Positions 9,511 through 55,794 of a stretch of DNA of 64,000 nucleotides are shown here, piece after piece. The notes beneath the pieces are model-generated. The model did not search any database, was not told where the DNA came from, and saw only the letters and a program-made list of their open reading frames with translations. The position numbers and the translations under genes are program-made. Each line of letters opens with the position of its first letter. Positions within the stretch are counted from its first letter, which is position 1. This stretch comes from Mobula hypostoma (Eukaryota): NCBI RefSeq assembly GCF_963921235.1, contig NC_086097.1, positions 7,440,001-7,504,000 on the forward strand, in the 5' to 3' direction.

Positions 9511-9853
9511 CACAAGATGGATGTTCATTCTGTAGACAAACACATAGTCCTCCATTCTATTTATGAGCCGACGTAGGCAAAATTCCAGATCACAACACAT
9601 TAAACTGAATTAAATTATATTGACTTTATTACTTACATCCTTCATATACATGAGGAGTAAAAATCTTTACGTTACATCTCCACCTAAATGAGCAATGTGC
9701 AATTTGTAGTAATTTATAATAAATGGTACGTACAACAATATAACATAGAAATACAGTTGTGTCAGCATGAATTAATCAGTCTGATGGCCTGGTGGAAGAA
9801 GCTGTCCCGGGGCCTGTTGGTCTTGGCTTTTATGCTGCGGTACTGCTCCCCAG

Positions 9854-10370
9854 GGAGAGTACGGGGTGTCTAGGGAGGAGTAGCACTTCTGGTGGGGGGG
9901 GGCCTGCTGTGCCATTTTTCAGGACAGCTCGTCCACCTTTGGTCCCCACCTGGCGCTCAGCTCTCTCCTGTGGCTCCAAGTAGCTGTAACACGCGCAGCA
10001 GGCATACCCTGGTAAACCGTCCTGGCAGACGGGCCAAACCAGGTGAGGGTAGCCGACGGGTCTTCGACCCTCAGTGAGGTAGGGGATCTGCCTCTCCCAG
10101 CGTGTGAAGTCTGGCCATGGAGGATTCAGTGGAAGAGACCAATTAATGGTCCAACGGTCAAGAAGGCAGGCCAGCAGGTATTCTGGAGCGCTAAGAGCAC
10201 GACAAGGCACTTAGACGTCCTGGTCATCCACTGCAAGAAGTGGTGATCTCTTTAAACTCACCCGGCAGAAGGCAAAGGCAAACCACTGCTGTAACCTGCC
10301 ACGAACATGTCAGAGTGGCGTGGAGGGAAATTGTCCGCCACCTGGAAATTTCAGACACGATCTAACAACG
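9854..10370 (+). mobile_element. RTE-derived non-autonomous retroposon (5'-UTR-like part joined to an RTE/Bov-A-like 3' part)
   Basis: Contains gaaggcaaaggcaaaccact and ends in cagacacgatctaacaacg, both RTE-like. TSD-like actgctccccag (9842-9853) / actgttcccag (10371-10381). Confidence 0.75.
9863..10049 (+). ncRNA. Candidate HDV-like self-cleaving ribozyme
   Basis: P1 GGGGTGT (9863-9869) / ATACCCT (10004-10010) with a G1.U wobble. P2 9961-9970 / 10040-10049. P3 9972-9974 / 10001-10003 (one mismatch). P1.1 CC (9976-9977) / GG (10011-10012). P4 CCGTC/GACGG. J4/2 GCCAAA. Confidence 0.6.
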
Positions 10371-11324
10371 ACTGTTCCCAGATGGTAGCAGCTGGAACAG
10401 TTTGTGTTTGGGGTGGCTCGGGTCTCCAATGATCCTTCAGGCCCCTTTTACACACCTCTGTTTGTAAATGTCCTGAATAGTGGGAAGTTCACATCTACAG
10501 ATGTGCTGGGCTGTTCACACCACTCTCTGCAGAGTCCTGCAATTAAGGGGGTACAGTTGATGCAGCAAGACAGAATTGTGCCCTTGTAGAAAGTTCTTCG
10601 GATTTGGGGGCCAATGCCAAACCTCTTCAAGCGTCTGAGGTGAAAGAAGCGCTGTTGTGCCTTTCCACCACACAGCCGATAGGTACAGATCAAGTGAGAA
10701 CCTTGATATTTACACTAAGGAACCTAACGCCGTTCACCCTCTCAACCCCAGATCCATTGATGTCAATAGGGGTTAGCCCGTCTCCATTCCTCCTGTGTCA
10801 AGAAGCCAGGATTATGACTTCTCTGTAGGCTGCCTCATTATTTTTTGAGATTATGCCAATCAATGTAGTATCGTCAGCAAATTTAATGAGCAGATTGGAG
10901 CTGTGGGTGCCAACTCAGTCATAATAGGACACAGCCCTGAGGGCCATCTGTGTTGATGATCAGAGGGTCAGAGATGAGGGAGCCCACATTTACCACCTGC
11001 CGGTGATCTGACAGGATATCCACGATTCAGCTACACAAGGCGGGATGAAAGCCGAGGTCTCTGAGCTTCTTGCTGAGCCTGGAAGGAATTAAGGTGTTGA
11101 ATGCTGAACTGTAGTCCAAGAACAGCATTCTCACATAAGCATCCTTCTTCTCCAGATGTGTAAGGATGGTGTGTAGAGCTACCATGCCATCTGTCGATTA
11201 GTTGCGTTGCTAGGTGAATTGTAGGAGGTCCAGTGTGGGTGGTAGCATGCTGCAGGTCTAGTCCTTGACCAGCCTCTCAAAGCATTTGTTTATTATTGAG
11301 ATGAGAATTAACATGAAGTTTACC

Positions 11325-39329: not shown

Positions 39330-40617
39330 CGTCACCCCGAGCTACCTACCGGCCTAGTCATCATATGGGAGACCAAGCATGGGAGGATGAACCCTGGGCA
39401 CATTGTTGGTAGACTCTCAGGTGGTGACGAGAGGGTGCACAGGTGCCACAGCAACAACCTGGCACTCAATGAAAAAGTCTTACTCAACGTAAGACGAAAG
39501 AGCTGATTGTGGACTTCAGGAAGGGTAAGATGAAGGAACTCATACCAATCCTCATAGAGGGATCAGAAGTGGAGAGAGTGAGCGGCTTCAAGTTCCTGGG
39601 GGTCAAAATCTCTGAGGATCTAACCTGGTCCCAACACATTGATGTAGTCATAAAGAAGGCAAGACAGCGGCTATACTTTATTCGGAGTTTGAAGAGATTT
39701 GGCATGTTAACAAATACACTCAAAAACTTCTATAGTTGTACCATGAAGAGCATTCTGACAGGCTGCATCACTGTCTGGTGTGGAGGGGCTACTGTACAGG
39801 ACCAGAAGAAGCTGCAGAAGGTTGTAAATCTAGTCAGCTCCATCTTGGGTACTAGCCTACAAAGTACCCAGGACATCTTTAGGGAGCGGTGTCTCAGAAA
39901 GGCAGTGTCCATTATACTTCATACTTTATTATCGCCAGACAATTGATACTAGAGCGTACAATCATCACAGCGATATTTGATTCTGCGCTTTGCACTCCCT
40001 GGAGTACAAGTCGATAGTAAATATTAAAAAATTAAATTATAAATCATAAATAGAAAATAGAAAAGGGAAAGTAAGGTAGTGCAAAAAAACAGAGAGGCAG
40101 GTCCGGATATTTGGAGGGTACTGTCCAGATCTGGGTCAGGATCCATTCAGCAGTCTTATCACAGTTGGAGAGAAGCTGTTCCCAAATCTGGCCGTACGAG
40201 TCTTCAAGCTCCTGAGTCTCCTCCCTGAGAGAAGAGGGACGAGAAGTGTGTTGGCATTATTAAGGACCTCCAGCACCCAGGGCATGCCCTTTTCTCACCG
40301 ATACTTTCAGGTAGGAGGTACAGAAGCCTGAAGGCACAAACTCAGAGATTCAGGAACAGCTTCTTCTCCTCTGCCATCCGATTCCTAAATGAACATTGAA
40401 TCTTTGGACACTTCCTCACTTTTTTTTAATATGCAGTATTTCTGTTTTTGCACTTTTAAAAAAATCTATTCAGTGTATATAATTGATTTACTTGTTTATT
40501 TATTATTATTATCACTATTTTTTTCTCTGCTAGATTATGTATTGCATTGAACTGCTGCTGCTAAGTTGACAAATTTCACGTCACATGCCGGTGATAATAA
40601 ACCTGATTCTGATTCTG
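39330..40617 (+). mobile_element. Rex1/Babar-like LINE 3' part, with a nested minus-strand LINE tail at 39916-40254
   Basis: KFLGVKISEDLTWSQHI..KKARQRLYFIRSLKRFGM..SILTGCITVW. The nested insert is flanked by cattat (39910-39915 / 40255-40260). Confidence 0.9.
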
Positions 40618-49136: not shown

Positions 49137-50883
49137 TAGAAACATAGAAAACCTACAGCACAATATAGGCCCATCGGCCGACAAAACTGTGCCGAACATG
49201 TCCTTACCTTGAAAATTATCTAGGTTTACCTATAGCCCTCTGTTTAACTGAGCTTCATGTACCTGTCCAGGAGTTTGTTAAAAGACCCTATCATATCCGC
49301 CTCCACCACTGTCGCTGGCAGCCCATTCCACGCACTCACCACTTTCTGCGTAAAAAACTAACCACTGACATCTCCTCTGTACCTACTTCCAAGCTCCTTA
49401 AACCTGTGCCCTCTCATGCTAGCCATTTCAGCCCTGGGAAAAAGCCTCTGACTATCAACACAATCAATGCCTCTCATCATTTTATACACCTCTATCAGGT
49501 CAAATCTCACCCTCTGTCACTCCAAGGAAAAAAGGTCAAGTTCACTCAACCTATTCTCATAAGGCATGCTCCCCAATCCAGGCAACATCCTTGTAAATGT
49601 CCTCTGCACCCTTTCTATGGTTTCCACATCCTTCTTATAGTGAGGCAAACAGAACTGAGCACAGTACTCCAAGTGAGGTCTGACCAGGGTCCTATATAGC
49701 TGCAACGTTACCTCTTGGCTCCTAAACTCAGTCCCACGATTCATGAAGGCCAATGCATCATATGTTTTCTTAACCACGGAGTCAACATTTGCAGCAGCTT
49801 TGAATGTCCTATGGACTCGGACCCCAAGATTCCTCTGATCCTCCACACTGCCAAAAGTCTTACCATTAATACTATATTCTGCCATCATATTTCACCTACC
49901 AAAATGAACCACTTCACACTTATTTATGTTGAACTCCATCTGCCTGCCACTTCTGAGCCCAGTTTTTCATCCTATCAATGTCCCACTATAACATCTGACA
50001 GCCCTCCACACTATCCAAAACACCTCCAACTTCTGAGTCATCAGCAAATTTATTAACCCATCCCTCCACTTCCTCATCCTGTTCATTTATAAAAATCACA
50101 AAGAATAGAGGTCCCAGAACAGATCCCTGAGGCACACTACTGGTCACCGACCACCATGTAGAATATGACCTGTCTACAACCACTCTTTGCATTCTGTGGG
50201 CAAGCCAGTTCTGGATCCACAAAGCAATGTCCCCTTGGATCCTATGCCTCCTTACTTTCTCAATAAGCCTTGTACGGCACACCTTATCAAATGCCTTGCT
50301 GAAATCCATATACACTACATCTACTACTCTACTTTCATCAATGTCTTTAGTCACATCCTCAAAAAATTCAATCAGGCTCGTAAGACACGACCTGCCTTTC
50401 ACAAGGCCATGCTGACTATTCCTAGTCATATTATGCCTCTCCAAATGTTCATAAATCCTGCCTCTTAGGATCTTCTCCATCAACTTACCAACCACTAAAG
50501 TAAGACTCACTGGTCTATAATTTCCTGGGCTATCTCTTCTCCCTTAAATCTTGTTGGATAATAGATCAACATCAGCAACTCTCCAATCTTCTGGAACCTC
50601 TCCCGTCCCCATTGATGATGCAAAGATCATCGCCAGAGGCTCAGCAATCTCCTCTCTTGCCTTCCATTGTAGCCTGGGGTACATCTCATCCAGTTCCGGT
50701 GAATTATCCAACTTGATGCTTTCCAAATGCTCCATCACATCCTCTTTTTTAATATCTATATGCTCAAGGTTTTCAGTCCACTGTAACTCATCCCTACAAT
50801 CGCCAAGATCCTTTTCCATAATGAGTACTGAAGCAAAGTACTCAGTAAGTACCTTTGCTATCTTCTTCGGTTCCATACACACC
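49137..50883 (-). mobile_element. CR1 LINE, 5'-truncated, decayed RT
   Basis: SQHGLVKGRSCLTSL..DFSKAFDKV..SVPQGSVLGPLFF..KFADD. Confidence 0.95.
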
Positions 50884-53923: not shown

Positions 53924-55200
53924 TAGAAACATAGAAACATAGAAAATAGGTGCAGGAGTAGGCCATTCGGCCCTTCGAGCCTGCACCGCCATTTATTATG
54001 ATCATGGCTGATCATCCAACTCAGAACCCCGCCCCAGCCTTCCCTCCATACCCCCTGACCCCTGTAGCCACAAGGGCCATATCTAACTTCCTTTTAAACA
54101 TAGCTAATGAACTGGCCTCAACAGTTTGCTGTGGCAGAGAATTCCACAGATTCACCACTCTCTGTGTGAAGAAGTTTTTCCTAACCTCGGTCCTAAAAGG
54201 CTTCCCCTCTATCCTCAAACTGTGACTCCTCGTTCTAGACCTCCCCAACATCGGGAACAATCTTCCCGCATCTAGCCTGTCCAATCCCTTTAGGATCTTA
54301 TACGTTTCAATCAGATCCCCCCTCAATCTTCTAAATTCCAACGAGTACAAGCCCAGTTCATCCAGTCTTTCTTCATATGAAAGACCTGCCATCCCAGGAA
54401 TCAATCTGGTGAACCTTCTTTGTACTCCCTCTATGGCAAGGATGTCTTTCCTCAGATTAGGGGACCAAAACTGCACACAATACTCCAGGTGTGGTCTCAC
54501 CAAGGCCTTGTACAACTGCAGTAGTACCTCCCTGCTCCTGTACTCGAATCCTCTCGCTATAAATGCCAGCATACCGTTCGCCTTTTTCACCGCCTGCTGT
54601 ACCTGCATGCCCACTTTCAATGACTGTTGTATAATGACACCCAGGTCTCGTTGCACCTCCCCTTTTCCTAATCGGCCACCATTCAGATAATAATCTGTTT
54701 TCCTATTTTTGCCACCAAAGTGGATAACTTCACATTTATCCACATTAAATTGCATCTGCCATGAGTTTGCCCACTCACCCAACCTATCCAAGTCACCCTG
54801 CATCCTCTTAGCATCCTCCTCACTGCTAACACTGCCACCCAGCTTCGTGTCATCCGCAAACTTGGAGATGCTGCATTTAATTCCCTCATCCAAGTCATTA
54901 ATATATATTGTAAACAACTGGGGTCCCAGCACTGAGCCTTGCGGTACCCCACTAGTCACCGCCTGCCATTCTGAAAAGGTCCCGTTTATTCCCACTCTTT
55001 GCTTCCTGTCTGCTAACCAATTCTCCACCCACACCAATACCTTACCCCCAATACCATGTGCTTTAAGTTTGCACACTAATCTCCTGTGTGGGACCTTGTC
55101 AAAAGCCTTTTGAAAATCCAAATATACCACATCCACTGGTTCTCCCCTATCCACTCTACTAGTTACATCCTCAAAAAATTCTATGAGATTCGTCAGACAT
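53924..55200 (-). mobile_element. Young 5'-truncated CR1 LINE
   Basis: Uninterrupted ORF, CpGs retained, intact 3' UTR and (tttctatg)n tail. Confidence 0.97.
54021..55154 (-). CDS. CR1 ORF2 reverse transcriptase, C-terminal 377 aa (truncated, not a stand-alone gene)
   Basis: LDFQKAFDKVPH, GVPQGSVLGPQLF, KFADD, RDLGV, RPHLEYCVQFWSP and FTQRVVNLWNSLP. Confidence 0.9.
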   Translation of the reverse strand: MDRGEPVDVVYLDFQKAFDKVPHRRLVCKLKAHGIGGKVLVWVENWLADRKQRVGINGTFSEWQAVTSGVPQGSVLGPQLFTIYINDLDEGIKCSISKFADDTKLGGSVSSEEDAKRMQGDLDRLGEWANSWQMQFNVDKCEVIHFGGKNRKTDYYLNGGRLGKGEVQRDLGVIIQQSLKVGMQVQQAVKKANGMLAFIARGFEYRSREVLLQLYKALVRPHLEYCVQFWSPNLRKDILAIEGVQRRFTRLIPGMAGLSYEERLDELGLYSLEFRRLRGDLIETYKILKGLDRLDAGRLFPMLGRSRTRSHSLRIEGKPFRTEVRKNFFTQRVVNLWNSLPQQTVEASSLAMFKRKLDMALVATGVRGYGGKAGAGF

Positions 55201-55794
55201 GAGGCAGTAGACAGACAGTATCTCTTTTCTCAGGGTTGGAATGTCTAACACCAAAGGTCATGCTTTTACTGTGAGAGGGGATAATTTCAAAGGAGATGTG
55301 AGAGGCAAGTTTTTTTTTACACAGAGAGAGGTGGATGCTTGGAGTGCACTGCCTGAGGTGGTGTTAGAGGCAGATACATTAGGGACTTTTAAGAGGTTCT
55401 TAGACAGGCACATGAATGTGAAGAAAATGGAAAGATATGGACAATGTGTGGGCAGAAGAGATTAGTTTAGTTGGTCATTTAACTGGTTCGGCAGAGCATT
55501 GTGAGTCAAAGGGCCTGTTCCTGTCCCGTTCTATGCTCTACATTCTGAAGTGTTGCCCAATATTAAGACCATAAAAGCATAAAGTTTAGGAATAGAATTA
55601 GGCCATTTGTCCCATCGAATCTGTACCACAATTTCATCATGGCTGATCCATTTTCCATCTCAGCCCCAGTCTCCTGCCTTCTCCCCATTTATCGCTTCAT
55701 GCTTTGTCCAATCAAGAATCAATCAATCTCTGCCTTAATTATACCCAACGACTTGACCTCCACAGCCACGGGGGCAATGAATTCCATAAATTCC

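Follow-up and report, generated by a model that had tools for sequence, protein, structure and literature searches.

The locus examined here raises the question of whether a short non-coding repeat carries at its 5′ end a self-cleaving RNA of the hepatitis delta virus (HDV) type. The repeat occupies positions 9854–10371 of a 64,000-nucleotide (nt) stretch of the Mobula hypostoma genome (NCBI RefSeq assembly GCF_963921235.1, contig NC_086097.1, positions 7,440,001 to 7,504,000, forward strand), which is referred to below as the window. A preliminary description of the window had read an HDV-like double pseudoknot at this place, with an additional hairpin in loop L3, and had assigned it to a non-autonomous element derived from an RTE-type long interspersed nuclear element (LINE). 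The window letters were checked directly and contained every stretch on which that reading was built: P1 as GGGGTGT 9863–9869 with ATACCCT 10004–10010, P2 as 9961–9970 with 10040–10049 (9 of 10 positions paired), P3 as GGC with GGC (one mismatch), an L3 that begins TCC, GG at 10011–10012, P4 at 10017–10032 and GCCAAA at 10033–10038. Comparison with related copies suggests that the first ~195 nt of the element do, in their ancestral form, probably encode an HDV-like self-cleaving ribozyme, with a predicted cut immediately 5′ of the first nucleotide, G1.

A search of the 3.48-Gb assembly gave at least 2275 candidate copies of the element, and the 40 that were scored had identities of 87–89%, most of them spanning the whole query. 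The family, designated F1, was defined by alignment of 30 copies with their flanks and a majority consensus, to which the window copy is identical at 484 of 516 aligned positions. The consensus starts GGGGUGU-AU-GGGGUGU, and the first of these two tandem words, at 9854–9860, has decayed to GGAGAGT in the window copy. The first word forms the predicted P1 (nt 1–7 with 149–155, 3′ strand ACACCCC, seven of seven Watson–Crick pairs). P2 (nt 106–115 with 185–194, CUCUCACCUG/CAGGUGAGGG) is paired at 10 of 10 positions and P3 (nt 117–119 with 146–148, GGC/GCC) at three of three, which is the restoration of both helices that the preliminary description had looked for in a family consensus. L3 starts UCC, and C121–C122 can pair with G156–G157, the GG that follows the 3′ strand of P1, to give both pairs of P1.1. 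P4 (nt 162–177, CCGUCU-CGGC-AGACGG) has six of six base pairs (bp) and is followed by GCCAAA in J4/2. The consensus and 11 of the 30 copies fit the nested HDV order that had been claimed for the locus: P1-5′, P2-5′, P3-5′, L3, P3-3′, P1-3′, P1.1, P4, J4/2, P2-3′. The features of the window copy are listed below, with F3 denoting a second family described later in the text and RNA letters used for the proposed helices.

9843–9853 (+), 5′ target-site duplication (TSD), CTGCTCCCCAG; relative to 10372–10381, one mismatch and one base missing.
9854–10371 (+), entire element; it belongs to the non-coding F1 family of ~520 nt, is decayed and is flanked by the TSDs.
9854–9860 (+), predicted ancestral P1 5′ strand, the first GGGGUGU (here GGAGAGU); consensus 1–7 pair with 149–155, and full-length copies start here.
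9863–9869 (+), second GGGGUGU, the P1 strand of the preliminary description; alternative P1 strand or 5′ strand of a stem closing the J1/2 domain.
9870–9960 (+), J1/2 insert, structured; its hairpin (consensus 55–59 with 67–71) covaries between F1 and F3.
9961–9970 (+), predicted P2 5′ strand; 10 of 10 paired in the consensus and 96.8% of alignment cells paired over 47 copies.
9972–9974 (+), predicted P3 5′ strand, GGC; its partner is GCC in the consensus and GGC here (C147G).
9975–9982 (+), predicted L3 of canonical length, UCCAAGUA, in which U and the CC of P1.1 are followed by a pair of variable bases, a G and two more bases.
9983–9999 (+), extra hairpin GCUGU/GCAGC with a 7-nt loop, between L3 and the P3 3′ strand.
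10001–10003 (+), predicted P3 3′ strand, GGC here and GCC ancestrally, by comparison with the consensus.
10004–10010 (+), predicted P1 3′ strand, AUACCCU here and ACACCCC ancestrally, by comparison with the consensus.
10011–10012 (+), predicted P1.1 3′ strand, GG, pairing with CC 9976–9977; unchanged between the F1 consensus and the two F3 copies.
10017–10032 (+), P4 hairpin; CCGUCU/AGACGG in F1 and CGGCUU/AAGCCG in F3.
10033–10039 (+), J4/2, GC(C/U)AAA; its first C, at 10034 (consensus 179), is the candidate for catalysis and is shared by F1 and F3.
10040–10049 (+), predicted P2 3′ strand, pairing with 9961–9970.
10372–10381 (+), 3′ TSD, CTGTTCCCAG, an imperfect match to 9843–9853.

The window copy has 15 substitutions relative to the consensus in nt 1–200. 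Among them, G3A and U5A alter the first P1 strand, while A111U lies in P2, C147G in P3 and U167C in P4, and since all four proposed helices are hit the copy is most likely a dead member of F1. The G1·U wobble that the preliminary description had noted in P1 is present in this copy; the ancestral pair, however, is G1–C, and the wobble is the product of CpG decay.

The specificity of the fold was examined with an HDV-type descriptor consisting of G1 and a 7-bp P1, a J1/2 of up to 110 nt, P2, a 3-bp P3, an L3 of 5–30 nt with CC near its start, the P1 3′ strand directly after the P3 3′ strand and followed by GG, a P4 hairpin, a J4/2 of 3–8 nt containing a C, and the P2 3′ strand. Ten dinucleotide-preserving shuffles of the window served as controls. 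With an earlier, still looser descriptor, which this graded test superseded, raw matches had numbered 59 on one window strand and 71 on the other. At a loose setting that tolerated the defects of the window copy (two G·U pairs in P1, one P3 mismatch, an 8-bp P2 with one mismatch and a 4-bp P4) 12 sites were found on both strands of the 64-kb window (five on + and seven on −), compared with 8–21 per shuffle. Because shuffled DNA is matched as often, the window copy alone is no more than chance. The intermediate setting (at most one G·U in P1, P2 8/8, P3 3/3, P4 of at least 5 bp) gave no match in the window, none in the 10 shuffles and matches in 11 of the 30 genomic copies, while six of the 30 were retained at the strictest setting. 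When a strict-type descriptor was run over both strands of 299,992 bases of fetched loci its matches were confined to the 5′ termini of family copies, 15 distinct ones in all, among them both F3 copies. A profile of nt 1–200, run with nhmmer over all fetched loci and the window, returned no diverged relatives. Many copies fail the descriptor because the consensus is rich in CpG (32 CpG), so that CCCCGG, for example, decays to CCCTGG or CCCCAG; the GG of P1.1, a pairing predicted from the sequence, is often lost from individual copies in this way. The ribozyme signal is thus a property of the family only and not of the window copy.

The second family was encountered in contigs from four public sequencing runs of four organisms, which were aligned, as contigs only, on a near-consensus F1 copy. 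The family and a variant of its L3-side hairpin, which marks F3, were present in all four runs. Depth over nt 76–150 was 4–10 times that over the element body, and a loose end recurred after nt 132 in every run (14, 32, 10 and 132 contigs), beyond which the contigs read a different L3 hairpin loop and then identical P3 3′ strand, P1 3′ strand and GG. The variant L3 motif has 1814 exact matches in the genome and none when reversed as a control. F3 was defined from two fetched copies (L093 and L094), which agree with each other in differing from the F1 consensus at 31 of 200 positions in nt 1–200. None of these 31 differences falls in the 44 nt of P1, P2, P3 and P1.1, and none breaks a proposed pair. 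In P4 three of the six pairs are changed on both sides and all are still paired. The J1/2 hairpin at 55–59 with 67–71 reads UGCCC/GGGCA in F1 and CAUCC/GGGUG in F3, with two double changes and one wobble change, and pairs 51–73 and 52–72 become wobble pairs in F3. The hairpin beside L3 is GCUGU/ACAGC in F3, its closing pair having changed from U·G to U–A and its loop from 7 to 9 nt. J4/2 changes from GCCAAA to GCUAAA, the second C becoming U and the first C, at window 10034, being kept in both families; the preliminary description had named this C as the candidate catalytic base, and it holds up as a candidate. L3 reads U-C-C-N-N-G-U-A in both families, in which only the two N positions vary, and P3 GGC/GCC is likewise kept in both. 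A fixed core with a free J1/2 middle, L3 insert and P4 is the pattern that would be predicted for an HDV-like ribozyme.

An alignment of 47 copies (45 F1 and two F3) gave the same picture for the full pseudoknotted structure, with 92.3% of cells paired compared with 38–50% when the partners were slid. Double changes were found at 12 pairs; shuffles gave 5.5, and none of 500 attained 12. Covariation had been put forward as the check on all four helices and on the L3 hairpin; compensatory changes were found in P4, and also in the J1/2 hairpin, while P1, P2 and P3 do not vary between the families.

The additional hairpin was followed through the genome with two patterns. A scan for the P3 3′ strand, P1 3′ strand and GG followed by the P2 3′ strand gave 1991 matches and none in the control; among the 100 matches listed, ~91 were of F3 type, five of F1 type and four were other decayed forms. 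A scan for P2, P3 and UCC followed by the P3 3′ strand, P1 3′ strand and GG gave 2061 matches, again with none in the control, and the loop was 21–28 nt in all 100 matches listed although the pattern permitted loops down to 4 nt. As none of the 100 listed copies lacks it, the L3-side hairpin is, judging by these copies, a real and fixed feature of the superfamily. The preliminary description had correctly recognized this hairpin but had placed it inside L3. It follows a complete L3 rather than interrupting a shortened one: a canonical 8-nt L3, UCCNNGUA, kept in both F1 and F3, is succeeded by 18–20 nt more (the hairpin and one G) before the P3 3′ strand, making a total loop of 26–28 nt. A canonical fold in which the hairpin itself serves as P3, with a loop of 7–9 nt, was rejected by inspection, as it leaves no partner for P1.1 and no P2. 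In one copy (G000:C1:11581373–11581419, −) the hairpin is GCCGU/ACGGC instead of GCUGU/ACAGC, a double change from U–A to C–G that may mark a subfamily or be a coincidence.

The L3 of HDV is laid out as U20-C21-C22-N-N-G25-N-N, with two cytosines forming P1.1, and the L3 of F1 and F3 agrees with that loop in length and in the spacing of U20, the P1.1 cytosines and G25. Further similarities to the HDV and CPEB3 ribozymes are the 7-bp P1, the 3-bp P3, an L3 that opens with UCC and has a G at the fifth position past the U, and a J4/2 with a C followed by purines; the 2-bp CC/GG P1.1 is common to F1 and HDV. The differences are also considerable, as the F1 domain is ~195 nt compared with ~68–85 nt, carries insertions in J1/2 and beside L3, has an ancestral G1–C pair and shows no similarity at the level of sequence models. 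In HDV G25 forms a reverse wobble with U20 at a metal site, the change G25A impairs a related ribozyme, and a role is described for C75 (PMC13635239; sources given by PubMed Central number are cited here from excerpts). As few as ~5 conserved nucleotides in ~50 are needed by HDV-like ribozymes according to the excerpt of PMC4870747.

The position of the 5′ end was read from the TSDs. Among the 30 top-scoring copies ~21 start at nt 1 (within the ambiguity of the G-run), five at nt 2–4 and four at nt 7–10; one of these (L014) has its first base right at the second GGGGTGT, and the other three begin at nt 7–9. The TSDs of the other copies are 7–13 nt and define the same borders. Because a top-scoring sample is biased toward full length, a second sample of 30 copies anchored on the last 100 nt was taken, in which 13 start at nt 1, seven at nt 3–9, three at nt 25–31 and seven beyond nt 130. 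Upstream of those last seven the DNA is unrelated, as expected for truncation during target-primed reverse transcription. One public run contained 97 contigs with unlike flanks that end exactly at nt 1. The preliminary description had placed the cut before G9863, ~9 nt inside the TSD-defined end. Since a self-cleaving RNA loses the sequence 5′ of its cut, and nt 1–9 are kept in both F1 and F3, the cut could not lie before nt 10 (9863); the predicted productive cut must instead precede nt 1 (window 9854), with the first GGGGUGU as P1, and there it coincides with the end that the TSDs define.

That the second GGGGUGU (9863–9869) is the active P1 strand, in an element of RTE LINE origin that cuts 9 nt inside its end, is nevertheless a reading with some evidence in its favor. 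The second word pairs with the P1 3′ strand in 93.9% of alignment cells, and the copy that begins at it, together with the three that start at nt 7–9, would fit such a cut. The same word can pair just as well with consensus 94–103, doing so in 96.5% of cells to form a 10-bp stem closing the J1/2 domain; the minimum free energy (MFE) fold of F3 copy L094 forms this stem, and no covariation for either pairing was seen in the copy alignment. A cut at nt 10 would moreover strip nt 1–9 from daughter copies, yet these are kept in most full-length copies as well as in both families, and the DNA examined contained no LINE, of RTE or other type, with sequence in common with the element, whose 3′ module is instead common with a short interspersed nuclear element (SINE) of tRNA origin. 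This reading is therefore very improbable. Still less credence is given to the proposal that a loose HDV descriptor happened to match a GC-rich repeat. At the stringency of the window copy the shuffles do indeed match as often, but the consensus-level matches are unique to the family, the compensatory changes are present and the 5′ end coincides with G1, by which chance is already refuted at the family level.

A weightier alternative is a conserved and structured but non-cleaving RNA or DNA domain in the 5′ region, such as an internal promoter, a platform to which proteins of the partner LINE bind or an element for translation or stability, with nt 1 as a transcription start and a partial likeness to HDV. 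Several observations favor it and weigh against a ribozyme. A transcription start would account for the sharp 5′ end equally well. The covariation observed proves the P4 and J1/2 hairpins and not the double pseudoknot, since P1, P2, P3 and P1.1 are invariant between the families and are supported only by complementarity and position, and the excess of double changes is in part CpG-driven coincidence in P4 and for the remainder mostly the contrast between F1 and F3. The ancestral first pair of P1 is G1–C rather than the G·U wobble of HDV and CPEB3, with G·U in nine of the 47 copies through CpG decay, and the wobble, which is usual at the cleavage-site pair of HDV-like ribozymes, matters there. 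The insertion beside L3 lies near the active site and could be incompatible with catalysis; the open-licence literature searched described no HDV-like ribozyme with a helix at L3, and none in the repeats of cartilaginous fish. Rfam holds ribozymes of this type as HDV_ribozyme and CPEB3_ribozyme. At the gathering score the whole window had no match to any Rfam model, and at E≤10 no HDV-type match was found on window 9700–10500, on the intact F1 copy L021 or on F3 copies L093 and L094, where the matches obtained were at chance level and to unrelated families only; this is weak evidence, because the HDV-type models do not allow such insertions. The MFE folds of L021 and L094 are no stabler than those of shuffles (z of −0.82 and −0.83). 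They place P1, the L3 hairpin and P4 in L021, and P2, P4 and the J1/2 closing stem in L094, although MFE folding cannot predict pseudoknots and is uninformative on a double pseudoknot.

A non-cleaving domain would on the other hand require the coincidence of a 7-nt word at the exact 5′ end pairing at seven of seven positions with a word that has GG immediately after it and a 3-bp P3 immediately before it, a P3 loop starting UCC, a 10-bp P2 around P4 and a C in J4/2. Outside the family this combination was absent from the 300 kb of loci, from the window and from the 10 shuffles. The F1/F3 conservation pattern is that expected of an HDV-like ribozyme, and no tRNA, 5S, 7SL or snRNA promoter-type match was found with Rfam at E≤10 on window 9700–10500 and L021. 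A promoter role would not in any case exclude a ribozyme, since the same 77 nt of L1Tc serve as both (PMC3383444, from an excerpt). Taken on both sides, a domain that does not cleave is an unlikely explanation, though one that retains appreciable weight, and an HDV-like ribozyme cutting before G1 is preferred.

The remainder of the element defines what kind of repeat carries the putative ribozyme. The copies are dispersed, flanked by TSDs of 7–13 nt, often 5′-truncated and without coding capacity, and they end in a (GAC)n tail; F1 is a non-autonomous retroelement of the class that lacks long terminal repeats (non-LTR), similar to SINEs and to short internally deleted elements (SIDEs). The longest sense open frame of the F1 consensus is 76 amino acids, which with the missing tRNA, 5S and 7SL matches bears out the earlier view of a non-autonomous and apparently promoterless element. 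Its assignment to RTE is not supported: no LINE sharing 5′ or 3′ sequence with the element was found in the ~364 kb examined, no systematic genome-wide search having been made, and a query of the genome with the 3′ end returned family copies only. The last ~140 nt were instead found to be common with a tRNA-derived SINE family of ~262 nt, designated F2, which was reached via a diverged 3′ fragment in locus L057. The two corresponding features of the window copy are as follows.

10237–10364 (+), 3′ module common with F2; consensus 382–522 compared with 29 F2 copies, 80–86% identity.
10362–10371 (+), 3′ tail, CUAAC and then (GAC)n-type repeats, here CTAACAACGA; read from the window letters, the copy alignment and the TSDs.

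F2 has 1884 candidates in the genome, and in the oriented loci L062–L090 the element lies at ~1376–1637. Its 5′ head is tRNA-like, box A and box B words being recognizable by eye, and its tail is (CTTTC)n, not (GAC)n. Just before the tail both families have a short stem-loop, which reads CUGGA-AAU-UCCAG in F1 and CCGGAG-AAA-CUCCGG in F2 in the alignments. In these alignments a single body and 3′ module follows heads of two kinds, predicted to be HDV-like in F1 and tRNA-like in F2. With no parent LINE in the DNA examined and a 3′ segment of ~140 nt in common with a tRNA-derived SINE, this points to an exchange of modules between SINE-type elements.

A LINE with an RVT_1 domain beside one F2 copy was considered as the partner and rejected as a mere neighbor, as 26 of the 29 F2 copies end ~260 nt from the 3′ end. 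This LINE (L091:620–1915, −, and 97 other listed places) is young and very abundant, with 96–97% amino acid identity, and its open frames are recurrently exactly 1017 amino acids. The 1 kb examined upstream of one LINE of this family contained no ribozyme head. The sequence adjoining an F2 copy gives rise to a 79-bp tandem array of ~10 units with 95% identity, found at L062:395–1240 (oriented) and upstream in L091, and a second, longer tandem array lies further upstream of it.

The window contains other retroelement fragments, namely open frames with RVT_1 matches at 54021–55229 (−) and 49986–50543 (−), with E of 9e-23 and 2e-20. An open frame at 39473–39946 (+) matches Pfam ALKBH8_N (E 1e-7), a profile that often matches the C-terminal regions of LINEs. 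Immediately downstream of one F1 copy (L003:2071–2122) the DNA belongs to a far more abundant repeat, which in each of the four runs exceeds the element 10–100-fold in depth. Two F3 cores were found 576 nt apart on the same strand (G000:C1:21776642–21777301, −); if these belong to F3 elements in tandem or side by side, as is possible, the F3 unit may measure close to 576 nt. The contigs of the other organisms contain further variants of J1/2 and P4, such as a J1/2 hairpin UGUCC...GGGCA and a possible P4 CUGCCU...AGGCAG, at loose ends before 1562, 1574 and 1596 and behind 1659 and 1703. These variants suggest more head-bearing families than F1 and F3.

HDV-like ribozymes are described as defining the 5′ ends of R2, R4/Dong, baggins, RTE, L1Tc and some non-autonomous elements (PMC6765202, PMC3774820, excerpts). 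The F1 domain resembles those of the LINEs in its extreme 5′ position, its predicted nested double pseudoknot and its location on an apparently promoterless element that would be co-transcribed with host RNA, and the predicted cut would likewise set the 5′ terminus of the element. Its long and structured J1/2 insert of ~98 nt is also paralleled in R2, where J1/2 loops reach 216–498 nt in silkmoths (PMC3774820). In contrast to the LINE ribozymes it is carried by a ~520-nt non-coding element, has the extra hairpin between L3 and P3 and a G1–C pair, and has no Rfam match. Further parallels are the R2 SIDEs and NARTc of Trypanosoma cruzi, which are likewise short non-coding elements with an HDV-like head and which have a LINE-type 3′ end (excerpts of PMC3414825, PMC3383444 and PMC3185411). 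Those elements are internal-deletion derivatives of a known LINE, whereas a parent LINE of F1 was not found in the DNA examined. Schistosome hammerhead SINEs, retrozymes and Penelope-like elements are short retroelements with self-cleaving RNA (PMC6765202), to which F1 would correspond as a short non-autonomous retroelement with a predicted self-cleaving RNA. They use hammerhead motifs and are often tandem or circular, unlike F1, whose predicted motif is of HDV type and which is dispersed as single insertions with TSDs.

The observed family and its borders, the restored helices, the invariant core with its covarying periphery and the 5′ end at G1 can be accommodated in a single scheme, in which the inferred parts are RNA cleavage and the chemistry behind it, transcription by read-through and a partner LINE. 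The element, having no recognizable promoter, would be transcribed within the host transcript in which it sits. The RNA would fold into the nested double pseudoknot of P1–P4 and P1.1, and the J4/2 cytosine at consensus 179 (window 10034) would act as general acid in a cut immediately 5′ of G1, generating the precise 5′ terminus that genomic copies display. The reverse transcriptase of a partner LINE would then start at the 3′ stem-loop and (GAC)n tail and copy the RNA by target-primed reverse transcription, which would give rise to the TSDs and to the 5′-truncated copies.

HDV-like ribozymes on promoterless non-LTR elements, and their use by some non-autonomous elements, are already established (PMC6765202, excerpt), so that what would be new here is the helix beside L3, the host group and the swap of heads with a tRNA-headed SINE. 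It is quite possible, if somewhat short of probable, that F1 and F3 represent a new HDV-like subclass with a helix between L3 and the P3 3′ strand, which serves as the promoterless head of an abundant vertebrate SINE-type superfamily in at least four organisms, that two solutions to the 5′ end of a SINE have been swapped onto one body, and that searches fixing L3 at 7–8 nt have missed the class. Even if the RNA does not cleave, the region is still a conserved and covarying 5′ RNA domain in an abundant repeat. If it does cleave, the HDV fold tolerates a whole helix beside L3, which would change the descriptors used in searches and provide a natural structural test case, and thousands of ribozyme copies would be added to a vertebrate genome. 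Many copies lie inside genes, where intact ones could cut host transcripts. The family would then be of SINE type and use self-cleavage instead of an RNA polymerase III promoter, and the body that it has in common with a tRNA-headed SINE would represent a modular exchange of heads.

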